Positions 8,015 through 26,695 of a stretch of 64,000 nt of DNA are shown one piece after another. A program made the translations under genes and the position numbers. Source of the stretch: Strigamia acuminata (lineage: Eukaryota); the NCBI GenBank assembly GCA_949358305.1, contig OX442314.1:21700001-21764000 (forward strand), given 5' to 3'. How positions within the stretch are numbered: position 1 is the first letter of the stretch; the number at the start of each line of letters is the position of its first letter. The notes beneath the pieces were generated by a model. It did no database searches. It was given only the letters and a program-made list of their open reading frames with translations, and had not been told where the DNA came from.

Positions 8015-10147
8015 AAACAAAAAAGGAAAAATAATCTATAGTAAAATCAAGAAAATATCACGACTCAAATTGATAAAAGTGATTGAATTTTGTTTTAACT
8101 CACCATTTTTATGTGTACCGAGCTGCTGTATATATAAAATAGGTCTATGATCATTGATATCGTCTACGATCAAAATCAACTCGACGCCATTTTTGCAACA
8201 AAGAAATGAAGCTATCGTCACTTACGTCGACAGTTCGGGGAAGGCTTTTTGTCTTCCGCCGGGTGTCGCTCTGTGCGCATGCGCGTAGAGCAATTAAGTG
8301 GCACCAGCCACATCAACAATGGTAGCATTCGACTAAAATTCGATTCATTAATTTATTTTTTTGCTTGGCACAAACAAGCCAAGCAAAATTTAAAATGTCA
8401 AAAAAATTAATTCCTGGGCTATTGCCAGTCATTTGCTCTATGCGCATGCGCGTAGAGCGACACCTGGCGGAAAATAAAAAGCCTTGTTAGAGCAAAAAAT
8501 ACACTATTGTATTTTCTTTTAAATAAAAAGAATATATCTAAATAATTGTGTGTTTTATTAAAATTTTCGAAATTCACATGACCACATTTCGACGAAACCT
8601 TCAATTTAAAAATAAAAACTAAATATATAACAACTCAAAATTACAGATTACCGAAAAGTGAAAAATTAAAATTAAAACATAAGTTTTTAAACAGCCGTTT
8701 CAGCATAATCTAACTTAATTCGAATTTCAAAACCTTCGTTATCTCGTCCTGATGCATGTATTGGAGGCAACGGTTCGGGAATTATAATGTCAGACGTACC
8801 AGTATCGTTACCGATCGTGTATTTCCTGGAGTATTTACAACTGCGACAGTATTTTCTGCCTACATAGCAAGCAGCTAAGATTAACAAAATTGCAATGCCA
8901 CATGCAGAAATAATTATGTAGTCCTCAACGTCTGATTTTTCACTATTAAAATTCCAAGTCAAGTTGTGGTTGTCTGTGCTGTTTGAGTATGACGCATCTT
9001 GTAAAGAAATAAAATTGGAAATTCATAATGAAATAAAACTGATAATAAATTTAAAATCAAGACAGATATACTTTCAAAATTCGGCGTAATGATTATTTTA
9101 AATCCTGAGGAAGTGGAATAATTGCATTTTCTCGATGAACATCTGTTGCTTAAACTGACAACACCAGGATTTGTTGTTACAATCAATCCATTGGCGGGCA
9201 AATCAGATTTTCGACACATGGCTCTGGTTTGATTTTCAGTTAGATAAAAATTCGATACCTAAAACAAAAGAAAAAATAATTGGGATTATTAAATTATTAT
9301 TTTTCTAAAACTGAATAACATTTTCTTACTGTGACAAAGTCCAAGCAGGTTTTAGTTTCATTGTCGAATGGCAAATTAAGAGAATTAAACTGAAAATTAA
9401 GTTTTGATGAATGCGAGGTAAATTCCATGGTACAGTTGAATCCGTGTTGTTGCAAACTTAGGTCTAATACAAATGAAGAATTTTCCGCCACAAATAAATG
9501 GCCATCTTTAGTGTGAAAACATGGCATAAACATTTCATCTGGAAAAAAAAATAAATTAATATATTCAATCTCAATCAATATTCAAAATCTACTTACGCGA
9601 CACATTAACGTATTGCAATTTGGAAATAATTAAAACAAAAGCTAAAACTGCATAAAAGTGCATGATGTTATAGAATGTCAAACCGTTTAAAAATTTTTGT
9701 CAAACTGATATAAAACGGATTCAATTTGACGCTTTTATACCGATCTGGCGCTAAAAAATAGTGAATTAACCAATGGCAATTGTTTGAATTTGTTACGTAA
9801 TTAAATATTTGAATAATTTGGGACCCGGAATTCAATAAGATTCAGCAATCAGCTTTCCTGCAATGCTACGGTGTTTCGTGGAGTTTTCTGTTCTCATAAT
9901 TCCATTATTTATAAATTTTGTTACTGAATCAAACAAATTGCAGAATTGTCAATTCGAGAATATTTAAATAAAAAATTGTGATTTTTGTGATTTTTATTAG
10001 CATATTTAACAAGTAAATACAGAATAAATACGTTTTATAAGTAAAAGCTTTTATATTTATAAATTAATAAATCGCCGCCAGATTGCGCTAGTATCGGCAC
10101 ATTTCTCCAAAATTCAAAAAATATGAACTCTTTCACATTAAAATGTT
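7963..10147. repeat. Local segmental duplication, copy 1 (tail of gene B + gene C1 + its upstream region)
   Basis: Colinear and highly similar to 11244-12930 joined to 25796-26179. Confidence 0.9.
8687..9663 (-). CDS. Gene C1: signal peptide - CUB-like - TM protein without LDLa, C-terminal PDZ-type motif ETAV (exons 9663-9597, 9538-9330, 9258-9072, 8997-8687)
   Basis: Signal peptide MHFYAVLAFVLIIS; FNCTMEF..CLDFVTV..MCRK CUB-like pattern with the same first three intron phases (1,0,1) as genes A and B; TM IIISACGIAILLILAACYV; tail GRDNEGF...ETAV*. Confidence 0.75.
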
Positions 10148-10782
10148 GTTTAAGTGAAACGCTATTAAATTTGCATACCAGTATACCTGTAGTAATATTC
10201 TTTTTATTGGTTTTTAAATAGTAATCGATTTTAATTTTAACATATAACAGGAGGTGTCAACAAGAGTATTTAGAAAAATAAATTAGTCATTTACGATTTT
10301 ATTTTATGTTTATTTATATATATTTTGATTCAAAATAACGAAGAAAAAATTATTAGGTCATAAAATTCGTATTTTTAAAATGACAAATAAGTTTTAACTT
10401 GTCACGTCAGTCTAAAACGTTTTAAAACTCAGATCGGTCCATCATAATAATATTTACTAATTTAATTAGTTTATTTTATTTTGAAAAAAGCAAAATTCAA
10501 TTTTAGACAAATATTTCATATCCCGGATGTCTCTGATTTAGGTATCAGCAGATAACAAATGTTGAACATCACTTGCGAGTCGTCTCTGCTCCCTACGATG
10601 CATTCAATCAAACCGTCTCATTTATATTTTTTAATCCTTTTTTTACAACAGTTTGTTTTTTCCGTGTATAAATTAGTTAAAATGTTGGTACATCTTTTGG
10701 GTCGTCAAGTGACGTCGTGTTGCTTGATTTTTTACGTTGTCAATCAACGATCATCACTAATGATCGTTGATAGATCTGCTTA

Positions 10783-11250
10783 ACTGAACATAGCTGATAG
10801 CACCACAACAGCATTGTTAAGACAATGCCAGATGGCTGTAAACTTACTCAGAGTGAAATTAACAAAATCTGATTTCATCGTGGATAAGGAGAGTCTCGAA
10901 GAGTGATTACTGCCAAAATTGGGGTATTGATCTGTGGACCTTATGGTATTGTTAAAAAAAATTCAGGATGGAAGAAAGTTCTATCCGCGTGAAACGTGCG
11001 CTTGGTTCACAAGCTGGCAAGAAATGAAAGAGAGAGTTGGGTCCAAATTAGAGCTCAAATTCCTCAAAAAGTGTCACGGCACACTGTTTCCCATACTTTG
11101 GCAATCCATCCACATGTTAGGTTTACAAAATGTAAGCAAAAACAAGACAATGCACTAATCCATGTCTCAAAAGCTACAAAATCCTCGTTTAATCATTATA
11201 AAAATCATTTTAATGGACTGGCCATCGAAAAGTCCATGCTTAAACCATCT
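10783..11250 (+). mobile_element. Degenerate Tc1/Tc3-like transposase fragment
   Basis: Contains QDNALIH and MDWPSKSPCLN (the Tc1 WPxxSPDLNP motif). Blocks match 6206-6240 and 6441-6505 of the intronic Tc1 element. Frameshifted and deleted. Confidence 0.8.
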
Positions 11251-11952
11251 TAAGACACTTTATTTGGAAAAAACAACAATAATAAAGCAACTTAAAAACA
11301 AAAGAGGAAAAATAATTTATAGTAAAATCAAGAAAATATCACGATCAAATTGATAAAAGTGATTGAATTTTGTTTTAACTGAGTATTTTTGTGTGTACCG
11401 AGCTACTGTATTTATAAAATAGGTCTATGATCATTGATATCGTCTACGATCAAAATCAACTCGACGCCATTTTTGCAACAAAGCTTCCGTCACTTCCGTC
11501 GACAGTTCGGGGAAGGCTTTTTGTCTTCCGCCGGGTGTCGCTCTGTGCGCATGCGCGTAGAGCAAATGAGTGGCACCAGCAATATCAACAATGGTAGCAT
11601 TCGACTAAAATTAGATTCAGAAATTTATTTTTTTGACATTTTAAATTTAAAGAAAATTTAAAATGTCAAAAAAATAAATTCCAGGGCTCTTGCCAGTCAT
11701 TTGCTCTATGCGCATGCGCGTAGAGCGACAACTGGCGGAAAATAAAAAGCCTTGTTAGAACAAAAAATACATTATTGTATTTTCTTTTAAATAAAAAGAA
11801 TATATCTAAATAATTGTGTGTTTTATTAAAATTTTCGAAATTCACATGACCACATTTCCAAGAAACCTTCAATTTAAAAATAAAAACTAAATATAACAAC
11901 CCAAAATTACAAATTACCGAAAAGTGAAAGATTAAAATTAAAACATAAGTTT

Positions 11953-12887
11953 TTAAACAGCCGTTGCAGCATAATCTAACTTAATTCGAATTTGAAAACC
12001 GAAATTATCTCGTTCTGATGCATCTATTGGAGGCAACGGTTCGGGAAATACAAAGACAAACTTATCAGTACCGTTAGCTATCGTTATCGTGTATGCCCTA
12101 GAGTATTTAGAAGTGCGTTATGTTTTACCTACATAGCAAGCAGCTAAGAAGATTAATAACAAAATTGCAATGCCATTTGCAGAAATAATCGCCATCATGA
12201 AGTCCTCAGCGGCTGGATTTTTGCAAAAAATAAAATTGGAAATTCATAATGAAATAAAACTGATAATAAATTTAAAATCAAGACAGATATACTTTCAAAT
12301 TTCGGTGTAATGATTTTAAATTTGTATCCTGAGGAAGTGGAATAATTGCATTTTCTCGGTGAACATCTGTTGCTTAAACTGACAACACCAGGACTTGTTG
12401 TTACAACTAAACCATTGGCGGGCAAATCAGATTTTCGACACATGGCTCCGGTTTGATTTTCGCTTAGACAAAAATTCGATATCTAAAACAAAAGAAAAAA
12501 TAATTTTGAATATTTAATTATTATTTTTGTAAAACTGAATAACATTTTCTTACTGTGACAGAATCCAAGCAGGTTTTAGTTTTATTGTCGAATGGCAAAT
12601 TAAGAGAATTAAACTGAAAATTAAGTTTTGATGAATGCGAGGTAAATTCCATGGTACAGTTGAGTCCGTGTTGTTGCAAACTTAGGTCTAATACAAATGA
12701 AGAATTTTCCGGCACAAACAAATGGCCATCTTTACTGTGAAAACATGGCTTAAACAATTCATCTAGGAAAAAAAATAAATTAATATATTCAATCTCAATC
12801 AATATTCAAAATCTACTTACGCGACACATTAACGCATTGCAATTTGGAAGTAATTAAAGCAAAAACTAAAACTGCATAAAAGTACAT
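11953..12887 (-). pseudogene. Gene C2: duplicate of C1 with a premature stop just after the TM and a shortened last exon
   Basis: Exons 1-3 are nearly identical to C1. The last exon reads ...CYVGKT-TAA (12120-12118) and then continues in frame to ...DYAATAV*. The retrotransposon is inserted 43 bp upstream of the ATG. Confidence 0.7.
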
Positions 12888-12930
12888 GATGTTATAGAAT
12901 GTCAAACCGTTTAAAAAATTTTGTCAAACT

Positions 12931-13749
12931 TGTCGCGTCCTACTTGGTATAGGTTTAAATAGCGCTAACGTGTAATACTTTACCTGTGATCAATTATGTA
13001 AATACCCAAATGAATACCAAATGTATGTAAATAAACAGGTAATTTATTCACCAGGCTTTATGCCTTTAAAATACACTCAGTAATAATTCTAGAGTCGACG
13101 TGGTCAGCGTCGAACAAAGGATTTCTCAAGATGGCGTCGTCGATTCCGCGTGGTCGGCGGAACAAAGGCGGCGTCTCGAGTTGTCGTTAATTCGTCACGG
13201 ATTCGTCTTCACGGACGCGGTGGAATGCTCTTTCGAGTCTTCTATCCGTGCCTGTTGTCTAGGGTTTGTTTAGCGTCGCAGAGGCCTCGTCTAGGAACTT
13301 TGGGGTTCCCTACAAAGCACTCGGACACTTACTTCGGCGAATAATCGTCTGGGCGATTATTCTGGGTGATTTCACAAGGGCTATTCTCGTGCTTTCGCAG
13401 GAATAGCTCGCAAGTGACTTCGTGAGAGTTACAGTTTGTACTTTACTCAGCGATCCTCGATCAATCCTAACTTGTAGTTGAAGTTGGCCTGACGGTGAGG
13501 TAGTTGCTGTGTTCTTGGTGTCGTTTGTGTAAGTTCTGACTTTAGGCGGGAAACACAGCCTTTTATGCAGTGGGGTGAAGGGCCGGCGATCAACCAATGG
13601 GGGCTGACCACCAGCCGCTTCCTCCCCCTCGGGGCACACACCTGCCATGGGGAGGTGGAGCCAACTCGGGGGGAACGACTCTTTAATCATAGTGACTCAT
13701 AGGACAAGTATCCGCCCTGGGGGGACACTTATCCAACTGGGTCACCACA
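12931..13749 (-). repeat. 3' LTR (819 bp)
   Basis: Direct repeat of 24977-25795 with no difference seen. AATAAA on the minus strand at 13048-13043. Confidence 0.97.
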
Positions 13750-13761
13750 CGTCCCTCCTCC
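13750..13761 (-). promoter_or_regulatory. Polypurine tract
   Basis: GGAGGAGGGA-CG immediately precedes the TG of the 3' LTR on the minus strand. Confidence 0.85.
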
Positions 13762-13796
13762 AGCTTCGATCTCGGATCGGAGCGATCTCAATTTTC

Positions 13797-16700
13797 TCAT
13801 CGCTCTCCTCTGCGAAGAGCCGGCAGCACTCCTCTGCATGGGCGGAGGATCACGGGTGGCACTGCCGGTGGCGGCGGTGGTAAATCCGGGGGCAGAGAGG
13901 TTGTCAGATCCGCAGGATTTTGTCGCTCGTTGATGAAGTACTGCGGGTGACTGCCGGCTGGCTCGCCAACCAACCCCGTACGCTCATGGATCCAAATCCG
14001 GGTAGACGCGGGGAATCGATCGGGGACGAGTCGGATCCTTCGCGACTCGGCGCTCGATCCGGGTTTCCTGTGGGCCCGTAGGATACGGCGATGGAAGACG
14101 GCGTCCATGGTGGATCGGGCTTCTCTGTTTAGCCATTTGAGGATTGATTCGCCGTGATCGTCGGAGTCAATGATGCGTTGTCGCGTGAACTCCGACATCT
14201 GAAGGAAGGGGTATTCCACTCCCAGCCTCAAATAAAGCTGCGCTGCTGGGGGCGGCGGAGGCGATGGTGGGAGCGGAATCTCCATTGGGCTCTCCAACGG
14301 TGGCGTAGCCGGCTCTGCAGAGAGAGCGGCCAGCCCTGCCGCTGGTGGTGAAGGAGAGGGCAGCGGAGGAGTTCGGGGTCCTCGCTTGGAACGCTTCGGA
14401 ATCAATATGGGTCGATTCGCGTGTCGCTTCTCCTTCGGGAATACCGGCTTTGGGGTCGGTATGTATGGTTGGACCGCCGCCTCTGGGGGGGCGGTCTCGA
14501 TGGCCTGTGGAAGGCTCGCCGCCGTTCCCGGTATCTCCGGAACCTCCCGAATTGTTCGCAACAAGGAAGGGTGGACTCCGGGGTTCCGGTAGCGGAATGC
14601 TAACGAACGCATCTTTGAAAACTGTAGGCCTGGGTTTTCCGTATTTCTGGCCAGGTCGAAGCGCAGCGAGGCGGGCTCAGGAGTCCATCCGGCCCATACC
14701 TGGTACAACGCCCGAGGAAGGTGAACTCCCTCACGGTCGACGATTGTCCAGGCCGCCATAGCTTGCCGACTGTCCAAGAAGACGCCCAGGGATAGCAGCT
14801 GGGCCAGTACGTTCGTCACAGCCAAATTCAAACTGCTCCGATGGCAGGGGTGAGCGCGGTCCGGATTGTCACTGAATTGCTGTGACAACGTCCGCATCTG
14901 TTCGATCGCCCAGTTGATGTGGTGAGTTTGGGCGGCGTCGGCCTGTCGTATGGCCAACTCGGCAATCGCGGGGTTCTCGTATTCGGCCAGATATTCTTGT
15001 AACTCGCTGAGTGGGGGATAGGCCGCTTCACGCCGGCATCGAGCGTCCATCTCTCGCTGGGCGTACCATTCGGCGTTGCGATAAGGTCGACACACTCGTG
15101 GCGTTGGGGGTGACGGTGGACGGCCCAGCCCGGGTAGATTATCGTATCTGACCCGCTTCGGAGCTGGATCCCCCACCGGAATCATCCGGGGAGGGGTCCA
15201 AGCGGTCACGGCTGGGTTTGTACCCTCGAGGAGTGGCGGCCATCGCGATTGCACTTGTGGGGGCACAAGCGCGGTGGGCACAGCCGGTGTTGAGCCCGAC
15301 GGCCGGTTGGCCGCGTATCCTCGGAAGGCGTTCTTCAATGCTACGGCCAGATCCTGTTTTGTAACCGGCCCATCTTTGTCCGACTCATCTGGGGACATTT
15401 GCTCTTCCGTCAACTCTCCCAAATCAATCTCTGCTTGGCGCCTGGACGGTCCAGCCGTGGGTCCGAGACTCTGGGGTTCGGACCGTTTCGCGGCGGCCAT
15501 CTCTCGCTCCTTCTCTAATCCCTTAGCTATCAGGGATTGTGCTCGCAACTTCTGACGTACTTTGCGCTTTCGATTCCTCCGGGTGCTGGCTGCGACGGAT
15601 CTTCGTTGGGCCGTCCTCTGGGGGACGTCCGTCGGAGAATTCGGTCTCTGGTGTGATGAGACGGTTCGTCGCGACGAGGATTGATCCGACGACTGTGTGG
15701 TAATCGCCATGAACAACGAGGATCTTTTCTTTCCTCGATCTTGGTGTGTCTCGGTCCTCGCAGCCCAGTGGGCGGAAGATTCGACTGTTCGCTCAGCCCG
15801 CGCGTCGTCTGGCGAGGCAGGCTCGAGCGTTACTACTCGGCGACACTCCGAGCGCACGACAACTCGAGTTCGGGAACTGGAGCTGCTCGAGCGGCTGCGG
15901 TAGTCGCGGCTCGTTGACGGGCCGGCCTCTATTGGGGAGACGGCCTGTCTTCTTCGTGCGGGTCCGCGTGGGGCGGACTCCGCCGGACGCTTCGATCTTC
16001 TGTGATGGCGGCGACTTCCCAGGATACCAGCGTGGTATAACTGCCACATCTCAGACTGCGTGGCCGTAAAATTCGCCGGCGGTATCCATCTGGGTGTCAG
16101 ATGATCTTCTTCGATGTCGCGAAGCCATCTACGGATTTCTTCGGGGGAGAAACCGTTTCTCTCGAGAACTCGGGTTACTCCGTGAGTCTCGGTGCGCTTT
16201 AAGCGTTTGATCTCGTCGTCCACTATTCTCTGGCGGGCTGCCAAGGTCGGGGCCTCGCTCCACCTATGGGAGGTGTGCAGCTCGGCCACCGTGCCTGGGT
16301 AAGCCTCTTCCAGGTACCCGGAGTAAACGGGGCTCGGCGGATCCGCATCGGGTGGGATCCGCGGCCCCACTCGCTCCCTCATCTCCTTCGTCATGCACTC
16401 GACCAGCGTTTTTGATCGCTCGAATTTTTCCTCGAGGGTCCTGGAATACATCAATCGGATTTTCCAGGCGCTGGTCTCTGCAGGATAGGCCTGCCGCAGG
16501 TAAATCGGCAGGGCTCCGCGAAAGATGTTGTTGGCGGTTGACGCCGTCGGAGGCAGGGCGTCCCACGATTCTAGCGGGTCGACCTGAATAATTTTAGATC
16601 ACAAGATTAATATAATAAATCCCAGTTAACGATGGGGATCAGAAATATGCTCAAGATCGACGGTGGCAGCAACTCCTTTCTTTTGTTGCGGCCGTCGGTC

Positions 16701-17261
16701 TTATTTTCTTGTTTCGCAGTTCTGCGATGATCTCCGCCGTCGTAGCGCTGATCCAACACTACTTTTGAACTCAGGTGATCCGCTTTTTTGGAAGGGGTCG
16801 CAGGCAAAACCGATCGTTAAATTTTAATTTCTTACGTTAAACTTTTTTATTTTAACTCTAATCGTATTTTAATTTATTACGATGTTTAAATTTAAAAGAA
16901 AGAAAACCTTTAGTTTTGGTTTTGGTTTGCCACGACGCCATTCCGCGAACACTTCCTTTGTTCTAGTTTTTTGGCGGCCTTGACTCCGAGGTGAATCTGG
17001 GTCCACTCTCGGGTTTTTAGCCAGCCTTAAATCAACAATAAAACAGAAAGAAATATATCAGTCACAAGTCACGCTCCAATCTGGGTTGGATGCAACAGAT
17101 TCAAAGAATTATGTGATTTCTCTGGGGAAATCACACTAATTTACCTGCAGCGGCGGTTGTTCGTCCCAATTCTCATCTTCTTCTGCATTTACGATTAGGC
17201 CGTCGCTCTCGTCTCTCGACGATGCGCTCGGCTCTAATCGTGGGTTGCGTCGATCGGCCAT
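13797..17261 (-). CDS. Retrotransposon ORF3, about 967 aa, two exons (17261-17145 and 16583-13797); not env-like, function unknown
   Basis: The 885-aa ORF stays open upstream to 16598. A TTATTCAG|GTC acceptor at 16584 and a CAG|GTAAAT donor at 17144 join in phase 0 to a 39-codon exon starting gaaATGG (MADRRNPRLE...QPPLQ|VDPLESW...). Confidence 0.75.
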
Positions 17262-17638
17262 TTCAATTTAGGAAAGTGAAGTTTTTTGAGAGGTCTTTGT
17301 TTTCTCTTTGGGGAGAAGCAAAAAACACGTCTCGTCGTGTTAAAAACAGTCGGAAACTGGGCCCATCGACGCTGAGAATTGTGGGTCTCGAACGCGTCTC
17401 GTATTTTGCGAGATCCGCCGTGCTGGCAATGATGCTACGGGGTCGACCGCGTGGTTTCATTGTCACGTGGTCGCCCGATACGTCATAACTTCTCGTCTGT
17501 TAGTGGTGACTGCGACAATTCGTTGCGAAGTTTGGACTTAGCCAAATTTTCGCGTCTCAACATGTGCAGCAGCTCTCGTAAGTAAATCTTTTTATTTTAC
17601 AAGGCCTCCGCTCCATGTTATCACATTTTCTTTTATTT

Positions 17639-20600
17639 TTAGTTCTTCCCCACGACTTTGCCGTCCCGAATGAACGGATTATTGCTTCGTCGTGGTCGAA
17701 GGTTGATTTTCGACGTGCTCGTAGATCGTGACTCTACTTGCTCGTTCATCTCCGATGTGTTGGCATTTTTCTCATTATTAATTTTTTTATTTTCCATTTC
17801 AGAAGTACATTCTTCTGCTTCCTCCCTCTCCGAAATTGCTTGCTCCGGCTGAGCTGGAGCCTCGTCGGCTGGGGATTCGGCGTCGAAGAATTCATCCTCG
17901 CTCTCCGCTATATTTTCAGCTTCATTTGTTTTTTGGAACGTGTCGACCACGGTGCCCCCTTGGCCGCTGTGTGTCTGACCTTCCAGCCAAATTTCCTGTG
18001 GAAATTCTGGCAGATATGGCCTTAAATCTCGGCCATGTATCGACTGAAAATTTTTGTTGTCCTCTAAGCGGCGCAGTTGGTATGCGTTGCCTCCGTGTTC
18101 GGCCACAATTACATAGGGACCGTCCCTCTTGTCGGCTAAACCTGCGGCGATGCCCCTCGCTGCATTGGACAACGTGTGTGCCTCCTTCCACACTAGATCA
18201 TTCACTTTAAAGTTCGCGAAAGCGAGATCGCCTTCTTTATCTGCGATTCTTTCTCTCATGTTGAAAATATGCGCCATCATATGCTGGTATGTGTCGGATA
18301 TAGTCTGTTCCAACCGGCACACGTACTCGTGTGGGCTCGATGGGTCTAATACGTTAACAGCTTCGGCAACGCGTGGGTCCCATGGCATCCTTAATTCGCG
18401 GGCGAAGTTGAGGTACGCCGGTGAGAATTCGCGTGTTCTTGACACGGTTGAGCGAATGCTGAAAGCGATTTCTCGCAGGTATTCGTCCCATCGATTGTGA
18501 ATATCGGTGAATACTGTCAGCGCATATTTTATGTCTTTATTTAATCTCTCGACTGGGTTTGTCTGAGGATTATACGTGGAGGTGTTTGATGCATCCATTT
18601 TAAATTTTCTACAGAAGTCCTTATATATTCTCGATCGGAATTGGGGGCCGTTATCCGAAATGAGTTTTCTGGGAAACCCAAATCGCATTGCCACGTCGTA
18701 AAGGCACTCGACTATGTTTTCAGCCGAGGGCTTCGCGAGGGCGTACAGCTCCGGCCATCGGGTGGCCACGTCCATAATTACGAGAATATACATGTTCTTG
18801 TTTCCCGTTGTGGGCTTGGGGCCCATCAAGTCTATGCTTAAGCAGTCAAACGGTGCGTAGGGTCCGAGAGACATGGCGTTCCTGGCCACTTTATCTCGCG
18901 GTCTGCACGCTTGGCACCGGGGGCAGTGTCGGATAAATTTCGTTATCTTTTGCCGCGCGCCCGGCCAGAAGAAAAGTTGTTTTACTCGATAAAGGGTCCT
19001 CGCCACGCCAGAATGGCTGGCGAGCGGGTGTCCGTGCATCAGCCACAACAGTCGGGTGTGCAGCGATGCCGGCACGACCACTTTAACCGAGTTTCCCGCT
19101 CCGCTGAGGTCATCTTGAAACGTCGGGTGGTATTTTACCAGGAGTTCATCATCTATGAGGTAGCTTGTTGCTTCTTTGACGAACTGTTTCCGGCGGTGTG
19201 GGTTTGTCATCCCTTCCGGAAATTCGCCGTTCAGCAAATATTGCGTTATAATTTGACATTTTGTGTCTGCTGCCTGGTGTTCGACGAACTCACGTCTCGT
19301 GGGTGGAGCGTATTGTGTTTTTTCTTCAATTTTTGCTGTGAAGGCGCGTAGTAGTGTTTTGTGGGTTTCTCCGGGGGGCGGAGATTGAATTTCGGATGTT
19401 GAATTGTTTGTCCCAGCTGGCTGGTATGTTCGAGTCCAAAAACCACAAAACGTTCTATCTTCAGGCTCCATCACTGGTAGCTCGTTCGCCTTTCGCAAAC
19501 GCCATATTCTCCGTGGAGTCGGGCAGTACAAGAGGTGGGTGTCGTCCTCGCCGTCGTCGTCTGGTCCTTGGGGGTCAGAGGCTGGGGCTCTCGAGAGGGC
19601 GTCGGCCACATGATTGTACTTCCCGGGGCGGTACGTAATTGTTATATCGCACGCCATTAACTCCAGTTGCCATCGTGCGAGTCGGCCGGAGGGTTCCTTG
19701 AGCTTCATCAACCAGCTTAGTGCCTGGTGATCTGTCTGAACCTCGAAGTTCGTGTACTCCAGATAGTCGCGAAATTTCCGAACTGCCCAAATTACGGCTA
19801 GGCATTCTAGTTCCGTTGCCGTATAATTTTTCTCCGCGCCCTGTATTTTTCTGCTTATAAACATACAGGGTACTTCTTGCGAGATTCCGTTGTACACGTG
19901 GGTCTGCAGAAGGGCTGCACCCAGTCCGATTTTACTCGCGTCGGTGTGCAACACGAACGGTCGGTTTAGGTCCGGCAATGGCATCTTTTCGACGTCAGCC
20001 AGCATTTGCTTGATAGTGCTAAATGCGGCCTCGCACTGGACCGTCCACTCAAACTCTTTATCCGTTCGTAAGAGATCCGTTATAGGCGCGGCCACTTCAG
20101 CCAGACCAGAGAGTAGTCGGCCGAAGAAATTAACCATGCCCATGAATCTCTGGACACCTTTTATATCTTCGGGGGCGGGGAATCCGTTTATTGCTTTGAC
20201 TTTTTCGGGGTCAATCGCGATTCCCTCGACTCCTATTCGATATCCTAGGAAGGCAAGCTCTTTCCTGCAAAACTTGCTCTTCCCTGGATGGATGTGGAGT
20301 CCTGCCTTGGCTAGGCGAGAGACCACTCTATCGATGTGGTCTATATGTTCTTCGAATGTGTCCGACGTTATTATGATGTCGTCGAGATACGCCCACACGA
20401 AGTCGTGCAGCATATCTCCCAACACGCTTTCGATCAGTTTCTGGAACGTGCTCGGGGCGTTTACAAGCCCGAACGGCATCACGTTGAACATTAGTCTTCC
20501 TATCGGGGAGTAGAAAGCCGTTTTCAGTTTGTCTTCGGGTTTTAGCTCCACTTGCCAATACCCCTTTGACAGGTCCATGGTGGTTACCCACTTGAACGGG

Positions 20601-21775
20601 CTCAGTTCCCGGAGGATCGAGTCTATAGACGGCATCTGAATCGGGTCTATAACCGTTATCGCGTTCAGGGGGCGATAATCAATGCATAGTCGAGGTTCCG
20701 AGCCTGGACGCATCACCAGGACGATCCGCATGGCGTATTCGCCCAGGGCTTGCGTTACTATGCCCTTGTCGAGCATGTCTTGGCACATTTGCGTCACGAT
20801 GTCTCTTTTCTGGGGGTTCATCCCCTTGTAAGGCACTCGAATCGGCTTGTCTGTGGTTAAGACTATTTCGTGTGTTGCTTCCGTCGTTCGACCAGGTGTC
20901 TTGGTCAGAATTCTTTCATGCTTTCGAAGCACTCGCCTTAGTAGCGATGCCTCGTTAACACGCAGTGCTGCCTCCTCGACCAGGGTGTCCACGACGTTAC
21001 TCCTCTGTAATTCCAGAGTGAAGGCTGCGAAATCGTAATCTTGGACGAATTTTCGCAATCCTCTTCCGTATTCCTCTTTGTCCTTGGCTTCGTCCAGTAA
21101 TTTTTGGGGAACTACGGGGACTGACCGTTCTCCCTCGGGACTTATCCAGTTCCATGAACGGGTTATCGGGTTTGGCTGAATCTTCAGTTTCGCCATGATG
21201 TCCATCCCTAGGAGGAATACTTTGTCGTGGGATGGCAAGACTATGAAGGGGTGGGACAGGTTCCCCCCCGTCCAGTCGATCATGATGCGAACTACGCCCT
21301 TCGGCTTGACGTAGCCGTTGGCGGTGAGCAATTCTACGTTCGCGTTCACTTGTGCCACCTTTTTTTCAATATCCAAGTCCTTTACTATATCTTCGGATAT
21401 GAATGAACGATCTGCTCCTGAATCCAGCAGACCGAACAATTTTTGGTTTTCGATCTCCACTGGCAGCATACACAGAGTTTCGCAATGTGTTTTCGTGACA
21501 TTGCAGTGAAAAACGCGTAATGTTTGGGGCTCAACCTCCAGATTGAACGGGAGGTCCGTCCAATCTATGTCGACCTCCGGCTTCGTTCTCACTTGCATAC
21601 TTGTCAGCGTCACTGTTTCTTCCTTCTTCGGAATGGTCTGCATGCGATCTTTGATCTGTGCCTCTGCCAAGGCATGACCTGCGGGTCCAGTGTGATATTT
21701 CTTCTTTTTAATTTCCGCGGCTGGCGCAGACGAAGCTGAATTTATTTCGGCGACGCCTGCGCTTGGGAGTTTTTT
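17639..21775 (-). CDS. pol: pol (protease, RT, RNase H, integrase with GPY/F motif), expressed as Gag-Pol by -1 frameshift
   Basis: Motifs LLDSGAD, YLDD, HTDAS, H-x6-H...CxxC zinc finger, D-D-E (IDLMGP, SDNGPQF, PVERLN) and DGPYV. The frame is open from 21781 with no early ATG (the ORF track starts at TTG). Confidence 0.97.
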   Translation of the reverse strand, partial: KKLPSAGVAEINSASSAPAAEIKKKKYHTGPAGHALAEAQIKDRMQTIPKKEETVTLTSMQVRTKPEVDIDWTDLPFNLEVEPQTLRVFHCNVTKTHCETLCMLPVEIENQKLFGLLDSGADRSFISEDIVKDLDIEKKVAQVNANVELLTANGYVKPKGVVRIMIDWTGGNLSHPFIVLPSHDKVFLLGMDIMAKLKIQPNPITRSWNWISPEGERSVPVVPQKLLDEAKDKEEYGRGLRKFVQDYDFAAFTLELQRSNVVDTLVEEAALRVNEASLLRRVLRKHERILTKTPGRTTEATHEIVLTTDKPIRVPYKGMNPQKRDIVTQMCQDMLDKGIVTQALGEYAMRIVLVMRPGSEPRLCIDYRPLNAITVIDPIQMPSIDSILRELSPFKWVTTMDLSKGYWQVELKPEDKLKTAFYSPIGRLMFNVMPFGLVNAPSTFQKLIESVLGDMLHDFVWAYLDDIIITSDTFEEHIDHIDRVVSRLAKAGLHIHPGKSKFCRKELAFLGYRIGVEGIAIDPEKVKAINGFPAPEDIKGVQRFMGMVNFFGRLLSGLAEVAAPITDLLRTDKEFEWTVQCEAAFSTIKQMLADVEKMPLPDLNRPFVLHTDASKIGLGAALLQTHVYNGISQEVPCMFISRKIQGAEKNYTATELECLAVIWAVRKFRDYLEYTNFEVQTDHQALSWLMKLKEPSGRLARWQLELMACDITITYRPGKYNHVADALSRAPASDPQGPDDDGEDDTHLLYCPTPRRIWRLRKANELPVMEPEDRTFCGFWTRTYQPAGTNNSTSEIQSPPPGETHKTLLRAFTAKIEEKTQYAPPTRREFVEHQAADTKCQIITQYLLNGEFPEGMTNPHRRKQFVKEATSYLIDDELLVKYHPTFQDDLSGAGNSVKVVVPASLHTRLLWLMHGHPLASHSGVARTLYRVKQLFFWPGARQKITKFIRHCPRCQACRPRDKVARNAMSLGPYAPFDCLSIDLMGPKPTTGNKNMYILVIMDVATRWPELYALAKPSAENIVECLYDVAMRFGFPRKLISDNGPQFRSRIYKDFCRKFKMDASNTSTYNPQTNPVERLNKDIKYALTVFTDIHNRWDEYLREIAFSIRSTVSRTREFSPAYLNFARELRMPWDPRVAEAVNVLDPSSPHEYVCRLEQTISDTYQHMMAHIFNMRERIADKEGDLAFANFKVNDLVWKEAHTLSNAARGIAAGLADKRDGPYVIVAEHGGNAYQLRRLEDNKNFQSIHGRDLRPYLPEFPQEIWLEGQTHSGQGGTVVDTFQKTNEAENIAESEDEFFDAESPADEAPAQPEQAISEREEAEECTSEMENKKINNEKNANTSEMNEQVESRSTSTSKINLRPRRSNNPFIRDGKVVGKN
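21724..21775 (-). promoter_or_regulatory. Programmed -1 ribosomal frameshift signal (A AAA AAC + 6-nt spacer + 9-bp stem)
   Basis: Heptamer at 21775-21769 in the gag frame. Stem GCGCAGGCG (21762-21754) pairs with CGTCTGCGC (21732-21724). pol is in the -1 frame and overlaps gag only across 21781-21742. Confidence 0.9.
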
Positions 21776-24700
21776 GCTAGATTAGTATTTAACTCCATCA
21801 TCATTTTCATCAAGGTTTGCATGATGCCTTTTTCTTTGACGGTTTTTTCGCATTTGTCGGAGTAGTGACCGTATTCTCCGCAGCTGTAACATTTGATGTT
21901 ACTTTTATCCCCTGTGGGAGTGAATCCCGGTTTTTTCGGGACGAAGGGCGTCGGGAATCGTCTTTTTCCTCCCAATGCCCCTCTCGCTTTTGTTGCCTGC
22001 ACGTGTGCTCTGAATTGTGCGATTGCTAAGGCCCGGTGTGCATGGTGCAAATAGGGACCTTGATCGTCGCATCCCGTCGACAAGTTTTCGAGGTGCTCAT
22101 TTAGGGCTTCCTCGTCGCTTGATGCTGGCTCCTCTTCTTTAGCCGTGGCGAGAGGTGTTGTCTCTTCGACTTTCTCCATCTGGGTGGAGTCCGTCGAGGT
22201 CACCTGCATCGCCGTTGCTGCCGGTGCTTTCTTTGGGGCAGCTATCGGGTTGGCTGGAAGAATACTGCCTGCTTTAGGCGTCAGCATTCGTCCGAAGGAT
22301 GCTTCGGTGAGACTCATTATGCCGCTCAAATATTCACTTGGCCTCATTAATTTCTCTGAGGTCTTGTGACGTTCGGCGCTCGTCTGCAACCGTTTCTCGT
22401 GCGCGTCAGCTTCCTCCGGGGGCAGAGTGGCGTAATACCGCTGTTCTATTTCTAACGTGTTTGTTAGAAGATAGTTACTGACATCTTGGTAATCGCCAGT
22501 GCGGGGTGCACGCATGTCTAGCAGAATTCTTTGCGAGTGGGCCGATAATCCTCCGTAAAAGATCATCGTAAAACCAGCGGGGTTTATTTCGTACGGCGCT
22601 CTTGCAAACAGGAGTTTCGCTCGGGCGTCGTAGTCGGCTAATGTTTCTCCTGGGGCTTGTCGTAGACCCCGTAATTTGTTACTGATCTCGTCTGGAGTCT
22701 CGCCGTATCGGAGATCGAAACGGACGAGAAAATCGTCCCAGGTTGGGTTTTTCAGTCCCTGGTACCATTCTCGAGCTGACCCCGTAGTTAGCTCCACTAG
22801 ACCGTGGGTTAGCATGTCGGCGACGGTGGCTTTTGTCGCTTTCTTGATACGCATTACTTCGTCTAGGAAGCGGTCTCCGGCCTTCCACGAACCGTCGAAT
22901 CGTGTTTGTATGTAGTGTTGCCAACGGATGTTACCCGTGGCTTCGCTGCTTGGTTCGTTTCGTACGCCATATTTACGCTTAACCCTCTCTCCAGCGCGAT
23001 TATGTTCGTCGCCTGGATGGCCTAGATCGATTCCTTCTCTTCTGAAAGAGTTCAGCAGGGCTCGGCCTAGCTCAGACATCGTGTAATGTCGGCCAGATGA
23101 GTCCTGAAAGTTCCCTTCCTCCGAACGAGGGTTGGAGCTCCGGGAGGAGCGGTCTGAAGCATTCGGCCGGTTCGACCGGTGCCCATCGCTGTCTTCTTGA
23201 CTCCTCCCTGTAGACGGTCGACTCGGATGGTCGTCGTCCGACGAATCGGAGGGCTCGGAGGGATCTCCTTGGGGGTGAAACCTCGGCCCTCTCGGTGGGG
23301 TCTCTCCGCCAGCCTTCTTCTGTTTCGAGCCTCCGGATGGCGGCGGCTCCCCTCCGTCGTTGTTCTCGTAAAAAGAATGCCATCTGTTTTCCTCGCTTTC
23401 GGGGCGTTCCCGATTTTTATTTGCGTTTTTCTTTTCGAGTAACGCGTCGATGGCTGCTCCCGTCTCGGATCTTTTTGAGGGGTGACGGTCCTTTGTTTTT
23501 GGGACCGACTCGTCTCTCTTTTGAGATTTCCCCCTTTTCGCCGTTTTTGCCGGCTTTGTTGCACCTTCTCCTGTGTCGGTATCAGAGCCGCTGGGGGGTT
23601 CTGGTTTCCGTTTCAGGTTTTCTTCATTTTTCTTCCTGTCCGAGACGTCTTGTGCGTACTCTTTCTGGAACTTTTCTGTCTCCTTCTCCCAGTTTTCGGC
23701 TTCCCATCTTTTTTGCTCATCTATTATAGCTTGTTTCTTCGCTTTGTACTCTTCGGTCCATCTGACTCGATCCCACTCTTCTTTCTCTTTCAGAAACTGT
23801 TCTTTTTCTTTTCTGGCTTCCTCTTCTCTCAACCTCTCGCGATGTTGTTCTTCCCATTTCTGATGTTGTAGAATGGCCTCTTTTCGCAACATTTGTAGTT
23901 TTTCTGTTTTTCTTTGAGCTATTAGCGCTTGAAATTGGTCCTCGTACTCTTGAGCTTCTCGATGTCGCCCTTCTACTGTTGCGTTCCATTCTTTTCGAAT
24001 TTTAGCTTCTCGTTCTTCCCTCATTTTTTGGACCAGTTTCTCTGTTCTCTCGGTGGTTCTTCTCTCGCGTTGCTCCCTTTCTTCCTCTTCCTTCCAGAGT
24101 TCTCGCCGCTCTGCGCTCAGCCTTCGTTGGCGACTAGTCGCTTCTTGTCTGGCTTCCTCGCGGGCCTTCTCTCTGGATTCGTGAAGTGTTCGGTTGGGGT
24201 CTGGCGCGAAACCTCCGGTGTCACTGGGCGTTACCTGGGGCATGGGCGTCTCCGCTGCTGGTCTTGCGACCGGCGTCGGGGCTTGTGCCGCACAGATAGC
24301 GTCAGTGAGTAGGGTAATCGATTCCCAGACTGACGTTCCTACTGGAATGTCTATCATCGCTTTCAGTTGGGCAGCTTGCTGCGTCAACCGAATTAGGTGA
24401 GATACTTCGAAGGAAACAACTGCAGGACTCGCCGTAACTCGGGGGGTTATCGGGGTCCCGCCGTCGTTTTTCCGTGGGGTTTGTTTTACGGACGTCTGAG
24501 CCGTTGGTGGCGATGGGTCTGTGCCGATCGTGACCGTTCTTTTCGGAGCTTCATCCGTCTCCTCGGTCATCAATATCGATACTCGTCCTGGTGATATCTC
24601 GCGAATTTCTTCTCGATTTTCTATGGCTTCCGGATCGGTATCTTCGAAGGGTTGCATATTCAAGGGAACCCGCTCTCGCTCTGGCCCGTCTAGGGCCGCG

Positions 24701-24882
24701 AGCGATGCAGCTTGCTCCTCTTTCTGCGCCTTCGCTCTCCTTTTATTCGCTCGGGCTTTCGCCTTTGCGGACATTTCAGGGACGGGACCATCCGACCTTA
24801 GGTGGTAGTCGGAGGTCCTTTTTCCCTTCTCGGGCATTCTCTGCTCGGTGTCAGACGTGGATTGCTCATCTTTGTCTGACAT
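21742..24882 (-). CDS. gag: gag, unusually long (1046 aa): charged coiled-coil N-half, capsid-like region, one CCHC zinc knuckle
   Basis: First ATG after the PBS; gag-like LTTGSAREWY and LRQAPGETLADY; zinc knuckle CYSCGEYGHYSDKC. Confidence 0.93.
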   Translation of the reverse strand: MSDKDEQSTSDTEQRMPEKGKRTSDYHLRSDGPVPEMSAKAKARANKRRAKAQKEEQAASLAALDGPERERVPLNMQPFEDTDPEAIENREEIREISPGRVSILMTEETDEAPKRTVTIGTDPSPPTAQTSVKQTPRKNDGGTPITPRVTASPAVVSFEVSHLIRLTQQAAQLKAMIDIPVGTSVWESITLLTDAICAAQAPTPVARPAAETPMPQVTPSDTGGFAPDPNRTLHESREKAREEARQEATSRQRRLSAERRELWKEEEEREQRERRTTERTEKLVQKMREEREAKIRKEWNATVEGRHREAQEYEDQFQALIAQRKTEKLQMLRKEAILQHQKWEEQHRERLREEEARKEKEQFLKEKEEWDRVRWTEEYKAKKQAIIDEQKRWEAENWEKETEKFQKEYAQDVSDRKKNEENLKRKPEPPSGSDTDTGEGATKPAKTAKRGKSQKRDESVPKTKDRHPSKRSETGAAIDALLEKKNANKNRERPESEENRWHSFYENNDGGEPPPSGGSKQKKAGGETPPRGPRFHPQGDPSEPSDSSDDDHPSRPSTGRSQEDSDGHRSNRPNASDRSSRSSNPRSEEGNFQDSSGRHYTMSELGRALLNSFRREGIDLGHPGDEHNRAGERVKRKYGVRNEPSSEATGNIRWQHYIQTRFDGSWKAGDRFLDEVMRIKKATKATVADMLTHGLVELTTGSAREWYQGLKNPTWDDFLVRFDLRYGETPDEISNKLRGLRQAPGETLADYDARAKLLFARAPYEINPAGFTMIFYGGLSAHSQRILLDMRAPRTGDYQDVSNYLLTNTLEIEQRYYATLPPEEADAHEKRLQTSAERHKTSEKLMRPSEYLSGIMSLTEASFGRMLTPKAGSILPANPIAAPKKAPAATAMQVTSTDSTQMEKVEETTPLATAKEEEPASSDEEALNEHLENLSTGCDDQGPYLHHAHRALAIAQFRAHVQATKARGALGGKRRFPTPFVPKKPGFTPTGDKSNIKCYSCGEYGHYSDKCEKTVKEKGIMQTLMKMMMELNTNLAKNSQAQASPK

Positions 24883-24956: not shown

Positions 24957-24974
24957 ATCCCGGACGGGCCCCCA
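24957..24974 (-). promoter_or_regulatory. Primer binding site complementary to the tRNA-Pro 3' end
   Basis: TGGGGGCCCGTCCGGGAT lies 2 nt after the 5' LTR and matches the MLV-type tRNA-Pro PBS TGGGGGCTCGTCCGGGAT at 17/18 positions. Confidence 0.9.
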
Positions 24975-24976
24975 CG

Positions 24977-25795
24977 TGTCGCGTCCTACTTGGTATAGGT
25001 TTAAATAGCGCTAACGTGTAATACTTTACCTGTGATCAATTATGTAAATACCCAAATGAATACCAAATGTATGTAAATAAACAGGTAATTTATTCACCAG
25101 GCTTTATGCCTTTAAAATACACTCAGTAATAATTCTAGAGTCGACGTGGTCAGCGTCGAACAAAGGATTTCTCAAGATGGCGTCGTCGATTCCGCGTGGT
25201 CGGCGGAACAAAGGCGGCGTCTCGAGTTGTCGTTAATTCGTCACGGATTCGTCTTCACGGACGCGGTGGAATGCTCTTTCGAGTCTTCTATCCGTGCCTG
25301 TTGTCTAGGGTTTGTTTAGCGTCGCAGAGGCCTCGTCTAGGAACTTTGGGGTTCCCTACAAAGCACTCGGACACTTACTTCGGCGAATAATCGTCTGGGC
25401 GATTATTCTGGGTGATTTCACAAGGGCTATTCTCGTGCTTTCGCAGGAATAGCTCGCAAGTGACTTCGTGAGAGTTACAGTTTGTACTTTACTCAGCGAT
25501 CCTCGATCAATCCTAACTTGTAGTTGAAGTTGGCCTGACGGTGAGGTAGTTGCTGTGTTCTTGGTGTCGTTTGTGTAAGTTCTGACTTTAGGCGGGAAAC
25601 ACAGCCTTTTATGCAGTGGGGTGAAGGGCCGGCGATCAACCAATGGGGGCTGACCACCAGCCGCTTCCTCCCCCTCGGGGCACACACCTGCCATGGGGAG
25701 GTGGAGCCAACTCGGGGGGAACGACTCTTTAATCATAGTGACTCATAGGACAAGTATCCGCCCTGGGGGGACACTTATCCAACTGGGTCACCACA
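24977..25795 (-). repeat. 5' LTR (819 bp)
   Basis: Direct repeat of 12931-13749, followed by the PBS on the minus strand. Confidence 0.97.
25580..25613 (-). promoter_or_regulatory. Putative LTR core promoter (CATAAAA TATA-like box + TCAGAA initiator-like site, TSS about 25583)
   Basis: CATAAAAG at 25613-25606 lies about 30 nt upstream of TCAGAA. Based on spacing only. Confidence 0.5.
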
Positions 25796-26695
25796 AACTG
25801 ATATAAAACGGATTCAATTTGATGCTTTTATACCGAGCTGTCGCAAAAAAAATAGTGAATTAACCAATGGCAATCGTTTGAATTTGTTACGTAATTAAAT
25901 ATTTAAATAATTTCGGGCCCGGAATTCAGTAAGATTCAGCAATCAGCTTTCCTGCAATGCTGCGGTGTTTCGTGGAGTTTTCTGCTCGAATAATTCCCTC
26001 ATTTATAAATATTGTTTCTGAATCAAACAAATTGCAAAATTTAAATAAAAAATTGTGATTTTTTTATATTTCAAAGTTAATAAATCGCCGCCAGATTGCG
26101 CTAGTATCGGCACATTTCTCCGATTGTCGTGAAGGCGCCGAAAATCGCAAAAAATATGAACTCTTTTACATTAAAATGTAAATCAAAATATATGGACTGA
26201 TGGGGATTTTATTTTAATCAAGATTAGACTAGTTTTCGAATTTATTAACCACTTCATAACGAAAAACGAAGTGGATTTAAAGTTGACCCTGGGAATTAGG
26301 CATCCATTTTTGTTTAAGTATTTAAGTGATGGCGCCACTGTATACAGGAAGTTGAAACCAACGAACAAACACACATAATGTCATCAAGTTAAAAAGCATA
26401 ATGTCCAGTGCACACTAACGAAATCATTTTCTTGCACAACACGATTCGTTGTGCAGTAAACGTCCAACTAATTAGCTTCCAGAATTAAATCCGACTTAAA
26501 AATTAATATATTTATTTACTTTTTTACTTTAAAATTCCACGGATACATTTTTGTGAGCAGTTGTATAATTTTCCCGATTAAAATAATTTTTATGACAATA
26601 TAAAGGTTAAAAGATGTGTCAAAATGGTTTTTCTTAATTAAAACACTAAAATATTACGAATAAGAACTGTTTTCGACTGTTCATTGAACTGACGA

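Follow-up and report, generated by a model that had tools for sequence, protein, structure and literature searches.

A third gene with a predicted intron of its own and predicted CCCAGA hairpins in an intact Ty3/gypsy retrotransposon of Strigamia acuminata

We analyzed 64,000 nucleotides of Strigamia acuminata DNA (the window; GenBank contig OX442314.1, positions 21,700,001 to 21,764,000), which hold an intact Ty3/gypsy LTR retrotransposon (Metaviridae) of 12.9 kb. Apart from the target-site duplication, all features described here lie on the minus strand. The 5' LTR (24977..25795; 819 nt, TG...CA ends) and the 3' LTR (12931..13749) are 100% identical, and this copy has just transposed. The 4-bp target-site duplication (12927..12930, second copy at 25796-25799) is confirmed by a paralogous empty site with a single target copy at 9703-9706. 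Within the 5' LTR, AATAAA at 25094 sits in a 10-bp hairpin, and we take the motifs at 25613 and 25585 to be a TATA-like box and an Inr-like motif, respectively. The primer-binding site (24957..24974) is presumably tRNA-Pro-like, and a purine-rich tract occupies the PPT position ahead of the 3' LTR (13752..13767). The gag gene (21742..24882) encodes one CCHC knuckle (Pfam zf-CCHC, E 0.002, below Pfam's cut-off) and a long charged region. It lies 5' of pol (17639..21781), which overlaps it in the -1 frame, with a slippery site, A AAA AAC, at 21775-21769 in the overlap. Pfam matches in pol at aa 107-196, 362-516, 604-709, and 903-1072 give the order PR-RT-RNase H-IN. The Ty3/gypsy assignment rests on this order together with the LTR pair, the target duplication, the position of gag, the primer-binding site, and the PPT. 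The 64-kb window holds no further fragment of the element. Relatives of Pol stand at 30-45% identity among the 120 matches listed, with no close relative among them and none in the contigs searched; an alignment search returned two distant loci, each with one CCCAGA and without ORF3 homology.

Downstream of pol, beyond a spacer (17262..17638) with six short-ORF ATGs (17626-17366), lies a third gene, ORF3. The initial annotation had described it as a large gene in the env position and in sense orientation, and all of its coordinates hold on the minus strand. Exon 2 (13797..16583) is a sense frame of 928 codons plus a stop, 3' of pol; joined to a predicted acidic exon 1 (17145..17261; 117 nt, 39 codons), it would encode 967 aa. 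The long frame of exon 2 is not a product of chance, because the ORFs in 500 Markov-2 simulations of the exon reached at most 535 codons and its other five frames carry 14-27 stops. The exon has a GC content of 61% versus about 33% in the flanks, and its codon usage correlates with that of pol (r 0.64).

The ORF3 protein is mostly low-complexity sequence with two small domains. Numbered from the start of exon 2, domain 1 (aa 4-112) is followed by an Arg/Ser-rich linker, a helical domain 2 (aa 525-645), and a Pro-rich tail without an anchor. The Arg-rich tracts, SR-rich stretch, and Pro-rich content noted earlier are all present, with 22 RS/SR dipeptides and 12% Pro. Basic clusters occur at aa 191 and 338 of exon 2, and one loose NES-like pattern occurs at 589. 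The N terminus is hydrophilic; the protein has one glycosylation sequon and six scattered Cys that form no cluster. That it lacks a signal peptide agrees with the hydropathy of exon 1 (maximum, -0.57), but the claim that it also lacks a transmembrane segment is less secure: by hydropathy, exon-2 residues 585-603, within the conserved helical domain, reach a borderline Kyte-Doolittle 19-residue mean of 1.75.

Among 1.84 billion representatives, ORF3 has a single homologue, P0125 (E 9e-8), which shares the two domains collinearly. Block 1 has 11/31 identities upstream of the first Met of exon 2, and block 2 is 120 aa without gaps at 23% identity. The linker of P0125 is rich in Lys and Ser and holds 8 RS/SR dipeptides, compared with 22 in ORF3, and the highest Kyte-Doolittle value anywhere in P0125 is 1.33. 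Used as a query (lengths of 288-919), P0125 returned itself alone. Isolated ORF3 segments matched no Pfam family at a limit as loose as E 5, GDSL and DEDDy domains included, and for ORF3 there was no match among PDB sequences, in a word-seeded protein search limited to lengths of 510-1624, or in viral, metagenome, and prokaryote contigs; the ESM Atlas yielded nothing for ORF3 or P0125. Three alignments that misplaced domain 2 were excluded as evidence on that domain; one of the three was the query in a contig search by way of its block-1 patterns. These searches showed no recognizable RNA-binding domain. We also considered ORF3 as a gag paralogue and rejected this, as blastp matched it neither to Gag or Pol of the element nor to the 120 Pol-like proteins.

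Foldseek against pdb and viral structures, a comparison suggested in the initial annotation, gave nothing at E<=0.001 for ORF3; the models are of low confidence (mean pLDDT, 42 and 45), and the result excludes no fold. With the same caution about the models, the best VIA-align matches (Z 7.6, rmsd 3.3, 82 aligned; Z 5.8, rmsd 3.8, 91 aligned) were generic helical hairpins and coils. Fold comparison bears mainly on domain 2, domain 1 being barely covered. In search listings of the open-access literature we found no description of the ORF3 family, no intron lying wholly within a third gene, and no CCCAGA hairpins in a retrotransposon. The data support a genuine third gene that is not an env and belongs to no known family.

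ORF3 is likely split by its own 561-nt intron (16584..17144; GT..AG, phase 0), with a predicted splice joining 17145 to 16583. In matrices built from 16 hand-picked host introns, the donor at 17144 ranks 1/525 GT sites (score, 10.2) and the acceptor at 16584 ranks 2/952 AG sites, although the acceptor score partly reflects AT-richness. Against the general donor consensus, this site is the sole 8/9 match among 474 GT sites. The intron has a GC content of 39%, versus 56% in exon 1 and 61% in exon 2. Exon 1 starts at a strong ATG (17261) and has a coding score of +4.0 in the proposed frame versus -17.7 and -10.6 in the others, a value that equals the top of 192 non-coding scores. Its end carries an in-frame motif like the start of exon 2 (39/5000 shuffles as good). 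The splice model has indirect support from the site ranks, the coding signal of exon 1, and the conservation in the homologue ahead of the first ATG of exon 2. The 39-codon exon and 561-nt phase-0 intron first proposed keep their coordinates as predictions.

A second host-like acceptor, overlooked at first, lies inside the intron at 17026 and is as strong as that at 16584. With a donor at 16907 it delimits a candidate cassette exon of 118 nt (16908..17025) that, in the exon-1 frame, reaches a stop after two codons; its coding score is ambiguous (-1.4). A 68-codon open frame in the intron (at about 16817-16611) was rejected as coding (score, -18.8). Upstream of exon 1 we found no good acceptor: the best-placed candidate, at 17306, scores -6.1, whereas the 16 host acceptors range over 5.4-38.6. 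No internal promoter was recognized by eye.

The element also carries predicted hairpins with CCCAGA loops that are non-random and clustered in the intron, as the following counts support. At 9/13 sense sites, CCCAGA forms the exact minimum-energy hexaloop, compared with 2/156 when flanks were swapped and 1.9% when they were random. The hairpin covariation score is 0.77, a value reached in 0/500 shuffles. The stems contain five G-U pairs and no A-C mismatches, which favors sense RNA; folding energy by itself does not distinguish the strands. Three of the nine hexaloops lie in the intron (16987..17140; loop starts at 17126, 17085, and 17001), in a cluster that spans from the donor to just beyond the internal acceptor at 17026. 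The other six are spread over the LTR (25394..25399; 3' LTR copy at 13353-13348), gag (22179..22184), pol (18668..18673), and exon 2 of ORF3 (three in 14482..15622; loop starts at 15622, 15475, and 14487). A further hairpin, with a CCCAAA loop, lies in the spacer at 17312 and covers the candidate acceptor at 17306. No hairpin matched Rfam at E<=1. The loop counts of the predicted hairpins and the internal acceptor with its candidate stop cassette are the additions made here to the earlier description of the element.

Several known systems resemble parts of this arrangement. Rex and Rec are Arg-rich accessory proteins from spliced mRNA, with structured RNA elements in an intron; ORF3 is likewise Arg-rich, with a predicted spliced mRNA and predicted structured RNA in its intron, a likeness that extends to Rev. 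Rev, a protein of about 13 kDa, has a single structured element of some 350 nt as its target (PMC10309623, PMC4488727), whereas ORF3 has 967 aa and its element has nine dispersed predicted hexaloop hairpins. The closest precedent is CERV, a 517-aa product of the Caenorhabditis elegans Ty3/gypsy element Cer1 that is nuclear and needed for export of the genomic RNA (PMC10309623). Both are third genes, CERV being made from spliced mRNA and ORF3 strongly predicted to be, and they are likened by description, not by sequence. The first three exons of CERV are in the gag frame (PMC10309623), whereas our best model of ORF3 has a dedicated first coding exon 3' of pol, with a phase-0 gag donor (24234) also present. 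The spliced CERV mRNA drops gag-pol, while the predicted intron of ORF3 encodes neither. CERV has H, M (Cys loop), and G-like domains (PMC10309623); ORF3 showed neither a Cys cluster nor a G-like domain, its models being of low confidence.

Errantivirus env-F genes join a short first exon, upstream of or within gag, to a long second one (PMC12992720). ORF3 matches them in the position of the third ORF and in its predicted order of short and long exons and differs in having no signal peptide, Cys pattern, anchor, or Baculo_F match. The plant LTR elements Ogre and EVADE keep spliceosomal introns for subgenomic RNAs of core proteins (PMC12786077); here a predicted intron is likewise retained but belongs to an accessory third gene. 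Non-env third ORFs of bdelloid rotifers encode a GDSL esterase, a DEDDy exonuclease, or small TM proteins (PMC5408684), and ORF3 has no Pfam match to either enzyme domain. Plant LTR elements with additional ORFs are also described (PMC7264820), and the word "intron" is absent from the main texts of both papers (PMC5408684, PMC7264820).

Our main reading, to which we give a probability of roughly 0.4, is that ORF3 is a nuclear regulator similar to Cer1 CERV or HIV Rev that acts through the predicted CCCAGA hairpins and keeps full-length RNA unspliced and exported. What the analysis shows is the intact element, the long ORF3 frame, the two domains conserved in one distant protein, the host-like sites, and the non-random predicted hairpins; the regulatory steps that follow are our proposal. 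While ORF3 protein is scarce, the strong splice sites would be used and ORF3 mRNA made. The basic protein would then enter the nucleus and load onto the hairpins, where it may block the donor or divert it to the internal acceptor at 17026, whose frame stops after two codons; either outcome would make ORF3 limit its own synthesis. Intron-containing genomic RNA would accumulate for Gag/Pol translation and packaging, and reverse transcription would copy that RNA only, which in this proposal is why an intron without gag or pol survives reverse transcription. A Rev-like reading seems reasonable, yet it has a close precedent in CERV (PMC10309623). The splice-site ranks, the coding signal of exon 1, the hairpin counts, the Arg-rich and RS-rich tracts, and an N terminus of non-secretory character favor our reading. 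Against it, we found no recognizable RNA-binding domain and no fold match, the linker of P0125 has fewer RS/SR dipeptides and is rich in Lys and Ser, and the best-placed acceptor ahead of exon 1 is weak.

The main rival, which we consider somewhat unlikely, keeps the intron real but treats the hairpins as a dispersed packaging code read by Gag. RNA carrying the three intron hairpins would be preferentially packaged, which would maintain the intron, while ORF3 does something else (anti-silencing, or scaffolding of an RNP granule or particle). The spread of 6/9 hairpins outside the intron suits such a code equally well; hairpins are found over the full length of the RNA and, in coding regions, in each of the three codon phases, and Gag carries a CCHC knuckle. 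A separate task for ORF3 would also sit well with its low-complexity, two-domain makeup, although we found no evidence of an anti-silencing role. What points back to splicing control is that 3/9 hairpins fall within about 140 nt holding the best donor and the best acceptor and that the CCCAAA hairpin lies over a candidate upstream acceptor. It is unlikely that splicing follows another route, in which a gag donor feeds the acceptor at 16584 to give a Gag-ORF3 fusion or three exons run from ATG 17188 through the 118-nt cassette. Of the donors in gag, the phase-0 site at 24234 scores highest (6.4; 7/9 consensus), CERV has exons in common with gag (PMC10309623), and a donor inside gag serves some errantivirus env mRNAs (PMC12992720). 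Read in the ATG-17188 frame, the cassette has no stop over 39 codons and rejoins in phase, and exon 1 lacks a good acceptor or promoter of its own in our searches. These routes, however, do not account for the strongest donor or for the coding signal of exon 1, and the end of exon 1 resembles, in frame, the beginning of exon 2. For the cassette, the coding signal is ambiguous, and ATG 17188 sits in a poor context after the strong ATG 17261.

We think it improbable that there is no functional intron and that ORF3 is the long frame only, begun at Met45 or a near-cognate ATT before 16583, behind an untranslated AT-rich spacer. Two in-frame ATT codons do lie in the five codons ahead of 16583, and the acceptor score owes something to AT-richness and to the small hand-picked training set. 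Nevertheless, chance would then have to put the top donor and a top-two acceptor of the 12.9-kb element on either side of one spacer, in phase and preceded by a strong ATG, and a start at Met45 would remove a third of the block 1 identities. Capture of a host gene fragment with its intron, functional or not, appears very unlikely. The splice sites are host-like and the context of P0125 could be cellular, but a host gene fits poorly with one match among 1.84 billion representatives and none in Pfam or PDB, with the GC contrast to the flanks, and with the codon usage shared with pol; the three element hairpins within the exon suggest long residence. A divergent envelope or cell-fusion protein has the slimmest chance of all. 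It would account for the env position and orientation and for the borderline helix at 585-603. The hydrophilic N terminus, scattered Cys, single sequon, and anchorless tail speak against it, and no env Pfam family matched, while the same scan found Baculo_F (PF12259) in the third ORF of L002, the positive control. The earlier view that ORF3 is not an envelope is supported.

Introns put into LTR elements vanish on copying, a principle exploited by the classic Ty reporter (PMC12786077). The spliced third genes known so far avoid such loss, since the region they skip is gag-pol. Unlike the introns of env or Cer1 CERV, the predicted intron of ORF3 holds no gag or pol, and its survival therefore needs explaining. 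Its removal would leave gag, pol, and ORF3 intact, so its presence in a copy this young implies either selection on the intron or a gate that passes only unspliced RNA. The initial annotation concluded that splicing must be regulated; this was too strong, as the intron would also persist if splicing were incomplete and intron-containing RNA were selectively packaged. More ambitiously, the element may hold a self-contained splicing switch, in which a new two-domain nuclear family reads a dispersed CCCAGA code, throttles itself via a poison cassette, and licenses unspliced genomes. We regard this version as doubtful; if true, a Rev-like circuit with an autoregulatory exon of cellular style would have arisen separately from those of retroviruses and Cer1. 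Within 800 nt, the locus offers a compact, testable system in which two acceptors compete for a single donor beside three predicted hairpins and a candidate protein. It opens the question of how genomic RNA is separated from messenger RNA in retrotransposons that have no Rev, and of what roles the many unassigned ORFs in the env slot may have.

The element, an LTR retrotransposon of 12,865 nt on the minus strand (25795-12931), has two LTRs of 819 nt each that were 100% identical in pairwise comparison, and its flanks are AT rich. Because it entered one copy of a ~3.2-kb host duplication (87 to 95% identical; window 8200-12930 and 25796-26100), a paralogous empty site was available at 9703-9706, which confirmed a target duplication of 4 bp. 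On the minus strand, gag (24882-21742) is overlapped in the -1 frame by pol (21781-17639), whose Pfam domains follow the Ty3/gypsy order PR-RT-RNase H-IN. Since the RT region was 30 to 45% identical to the 120 listed matches (many of those named being from animals), pol appears to have no close relative on record among the matches listed. The LTR carries TATA-like (25613) and Inr-like (25585) motifs, which suggests that transcription starts there, and a 695-nt stretch running from 25577 to the start codon of gag contains no ATG (10.5 expected). A 10-bp hairpin (25098-25073, minus strand; copy in the 3' LTR) has the LTR AATAAA (25094) in one of its arms, resembling the poly(A)-signal occlusion of retroviral LTRs, and a good donor (25029) stands 65 nt 3' of this signal. 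Two further AATAAA motifs immediately follow the pol stop (17637 and 17596, minus strand); early polyadenylation there is possible and would part gag-pol from ORF3 transcripts. Elsewhere in the window are a reverse-transcriptase fragment of another retroelement (600-1613, minus strand) and a core of ~490 nt between inverted repeats 52 and 71 nt long (5944-6677), much like a small nonautonomous DNA transposon.

ORF3, the third gene, is real and very probably functional. Its exon 2 (16583-13797) comprises 928 open codons, whereas the longest frame in 500 Markov-2 simulations had 535, and the remaining five frames contain 14 to 27 stops each. Codon usage correlated with that of pol at 0.64, compared to 0.42 and 0.30 in the shifted frames. 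Pfam, PDB sequences, the ESM Atlas, and a word-seeded protein search gave no match for ORF3. With phmmer, the single match among 1.84 billion representatives was P0125 (525 amino acids [aa]; E = 9e-8), one JGI/IMG entry annotated "hypothetical protein" on a contig of 2,921 nt. The two proteins share two collinear blocks, at exon-2 aa 6 to 108 (30% identity) and 525 to 644 (23%, gap-free). Structure models were poor (mean pLDDT of 42 and 45), and in these low-confidence models domain 2 was a helical bundle (pLDDT up to about 70 to 79 in P0125). The initial annotation had proposed Foldseek; fold searches run on these poor models, including the Foldseek pdb and viral sets, returned no clear match.

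Splice sites were scored with matrices trained on 16 host introns chosen by eye. Removal of twelve of them yields an uninterrupted nucleoporin frame of 1,212 codons, belonging to the 3' part of a Nup205-like gene (64000-59570, minus strand; 12 introns of 55 to 80 nt); the other four, chosen by eye alone, come from an intron-containing host gene 3' of Nup205 (59000-56850, minus strand) that by eye may be UDP-glycosyltransferase-like. The short introns of the Nup205-like gene and the AT-rich flanks of the element make an animal host likely. With both LTRs counted, predicted donor 17144 ranked first among the 525 GT sites of the element, and predicted acceptor 16584 ranked second among its 952 AG sites. 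Against the general donor consensus, independent of the training, donor 17144 alone among 474 sites matched at 8 of 9 positions. A further phase-0 donor in exon 1 (17192, minus strand; score 6.8) has the same GTAAAT hexamer, and its use would shorten the N terminus by 16 residues. A codon-phase model gave exon 1 (17261-17145) +4.0 in the proposed frame and -17.7 and -10.6 in the others, where the training-piece median was 5.25 and the highest of 192 noncoding scores was 4.0. The end of exon 1 also carries an in-frame motif like the start of exon 2 (compared with the first 40 residues of exon 2, 39/5,000 shuffles scored equally well; compared with the whole exon, 28/1,000 did). P0125 extends further upstream without a change of frame and has Met at positions 20 and 31; with these as starts, its first conserved Trp would be residue 51 or 40, respectively, versus 46 in ORF3; this spacing speaks for a spliced N terminus but is only suggestive, because the P0125 gene call takes no account of splicing. 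Splice-site ranks, coding score, and P0125 conservation lend good, if indirect, support to the 39-codon exon and 561-nt phase-0 intron (17144-16584) claimed initially, and the predicted junction 17145-16583 is probably correct.

Within the intron, acceptor 17026 ranked first in the element (23.4, versus 23.0 for 16584), mostly through its T-rich tract. With donor 16907 (score 5.5), it bounds a 118-nt cassette that, joined to exon 1, allows only two codons before a stop; read in frame with a weaker ATG (17188), the cassette has 39 codons free of stops and comes back in phase. Its coding score was ambiguous (-1.4), and we regard it as a candidate poison exon.

The hexamer CCCAGA occurs 15 times in sense and once in antisense in the element, or at 13 sense sites with the LTR taken once. 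At 9 of these 13, the minimum-energy fold has exactly these six bases as its loop, compared to 2/156 after the flanks were swapped and 1.9% when they were random (binomial P = 2.5e-13; 1e-9 corrected for 4,096 hexamers), and every other hexamer reached two exact loops at most on either strand. Across all 13 rows, misses included, 73.8% of cells were paired, versus 41.3% after shuffling (0/500 shuffles as high). None of 13 CCCAGA occurrences in the flanks had a 5-bp stem. Sense-strand stems hold five G-U pairs and no A-C mismatches; folding energies by themselves do not discriminate the strand. The region 17340-16960 folded better than 100/100 shuffles (z = -3.7), and an Rfam search gave no match for the hairpin RNA. 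Variant loops occur at 25350 and 17312 (CCCAAA) and at 14411 (CCCATA). The LTR 5' end (25782-25630, minus strand) has two long hairpins of 14 and 17 pairs with related C-rich loops, one CCCATT, and exon 1 has a long stem without a CCCAGA loop (17246-17193, minus strand).

Splicing of env and of CERV, the spliced third-gene protein of the Caenorhabditis elegans Ty3/gypsy element Cer1, skips gag-pol, so the spliced RNAs are dead ends. Removal of the ORF3 intron would leave all three ORFs, and its survival would therefore need a gate or selection on intron content; LTR elements ordinarily lose an intron on copying (PMC12786077). Our best model (probability of roughly 0.4) casts ORF3 as a nuclear factor of the CERV/Rev kind that acts through the hairpins. 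The protein would bind the CCCAGA hairpins and, once bound, keep the RNA unspliced or divert the donor to the dead-end acceptor 17026, thereby limiting its own synthesis and supplying genomes. The main rival, which we consider possible but doubtful, is that the hairpins make up a packaging code recognized by Gag, with ORF3 serving some other function. Three hairpins (17126, 17085, and 17001) span the donor to just beyond acceptor 17026, and the remaining ones lie in the LTR, gag, and pol, plus three in exon 2.

Different splicing of ORF3 is unlikely. The route of exon 1 into an mRNA does count against the predicted intron: 3' of the last ATG in the pol-ORF3 spacer, a pyrimidine tract accompanies just one AG, the candidate acceptor 17306, which is weak (-6.1, under all 16 host acceptors), and acceptor 16584 could instead be fed from gag, which has a candidate phase-0 donor at 24234 (score 6.4). 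That there is no intron seems less likely again: the ORF3 frame is shut five codons upstream of acceptor 16584, and 11 of the 31 block-1 identities with P0125 precede the first Met of exon 2 (residue 45); translation therefore enters at or before the acceptor. We give little credence to a captured host gene and least to Env. ORF3 does occupy the env position, but its N terminus is hydrophilic, its six Cys are scattered, and it has one sequon and no Pfam family, though the identical scan picked up Baculo_F in the third ORF of locus L002, our positive control. (In L002:3137-5803, a gypsy element unrelated to this one, an env of the Baculo_F type lies 3' of pol.) The initial description of a long non-env frame thus holds; as for its lack of a signal peptide or transmembrane segment, the N terminus agrees, and one borderline hydrophobic helix (exon-2 aa 585 to 603; hydropathy 1.75) qualifies the latter.

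As modeled here, ORF3 is closest in its working to CERV as set out in PMC10309623; compared by that description only, it is not classed with CERV, since it has a different exon layout and showed no Cys loop. Errantivirus env takes upstream or gag exons (PMC12992720), unlike the predicted exon 1 3' of pol. Non-env third ORFs are known from rotifers (PMC5408684) and plants (PMC7264820), and PMC13524379 and PMC13547354 contributed nothing specific to this arrangement, of which the mainly open-access literature searched gave no description. What would be new is the meeting, at one predicted intron, of a spliced non-env third gene and an array of same-loop hairpins.
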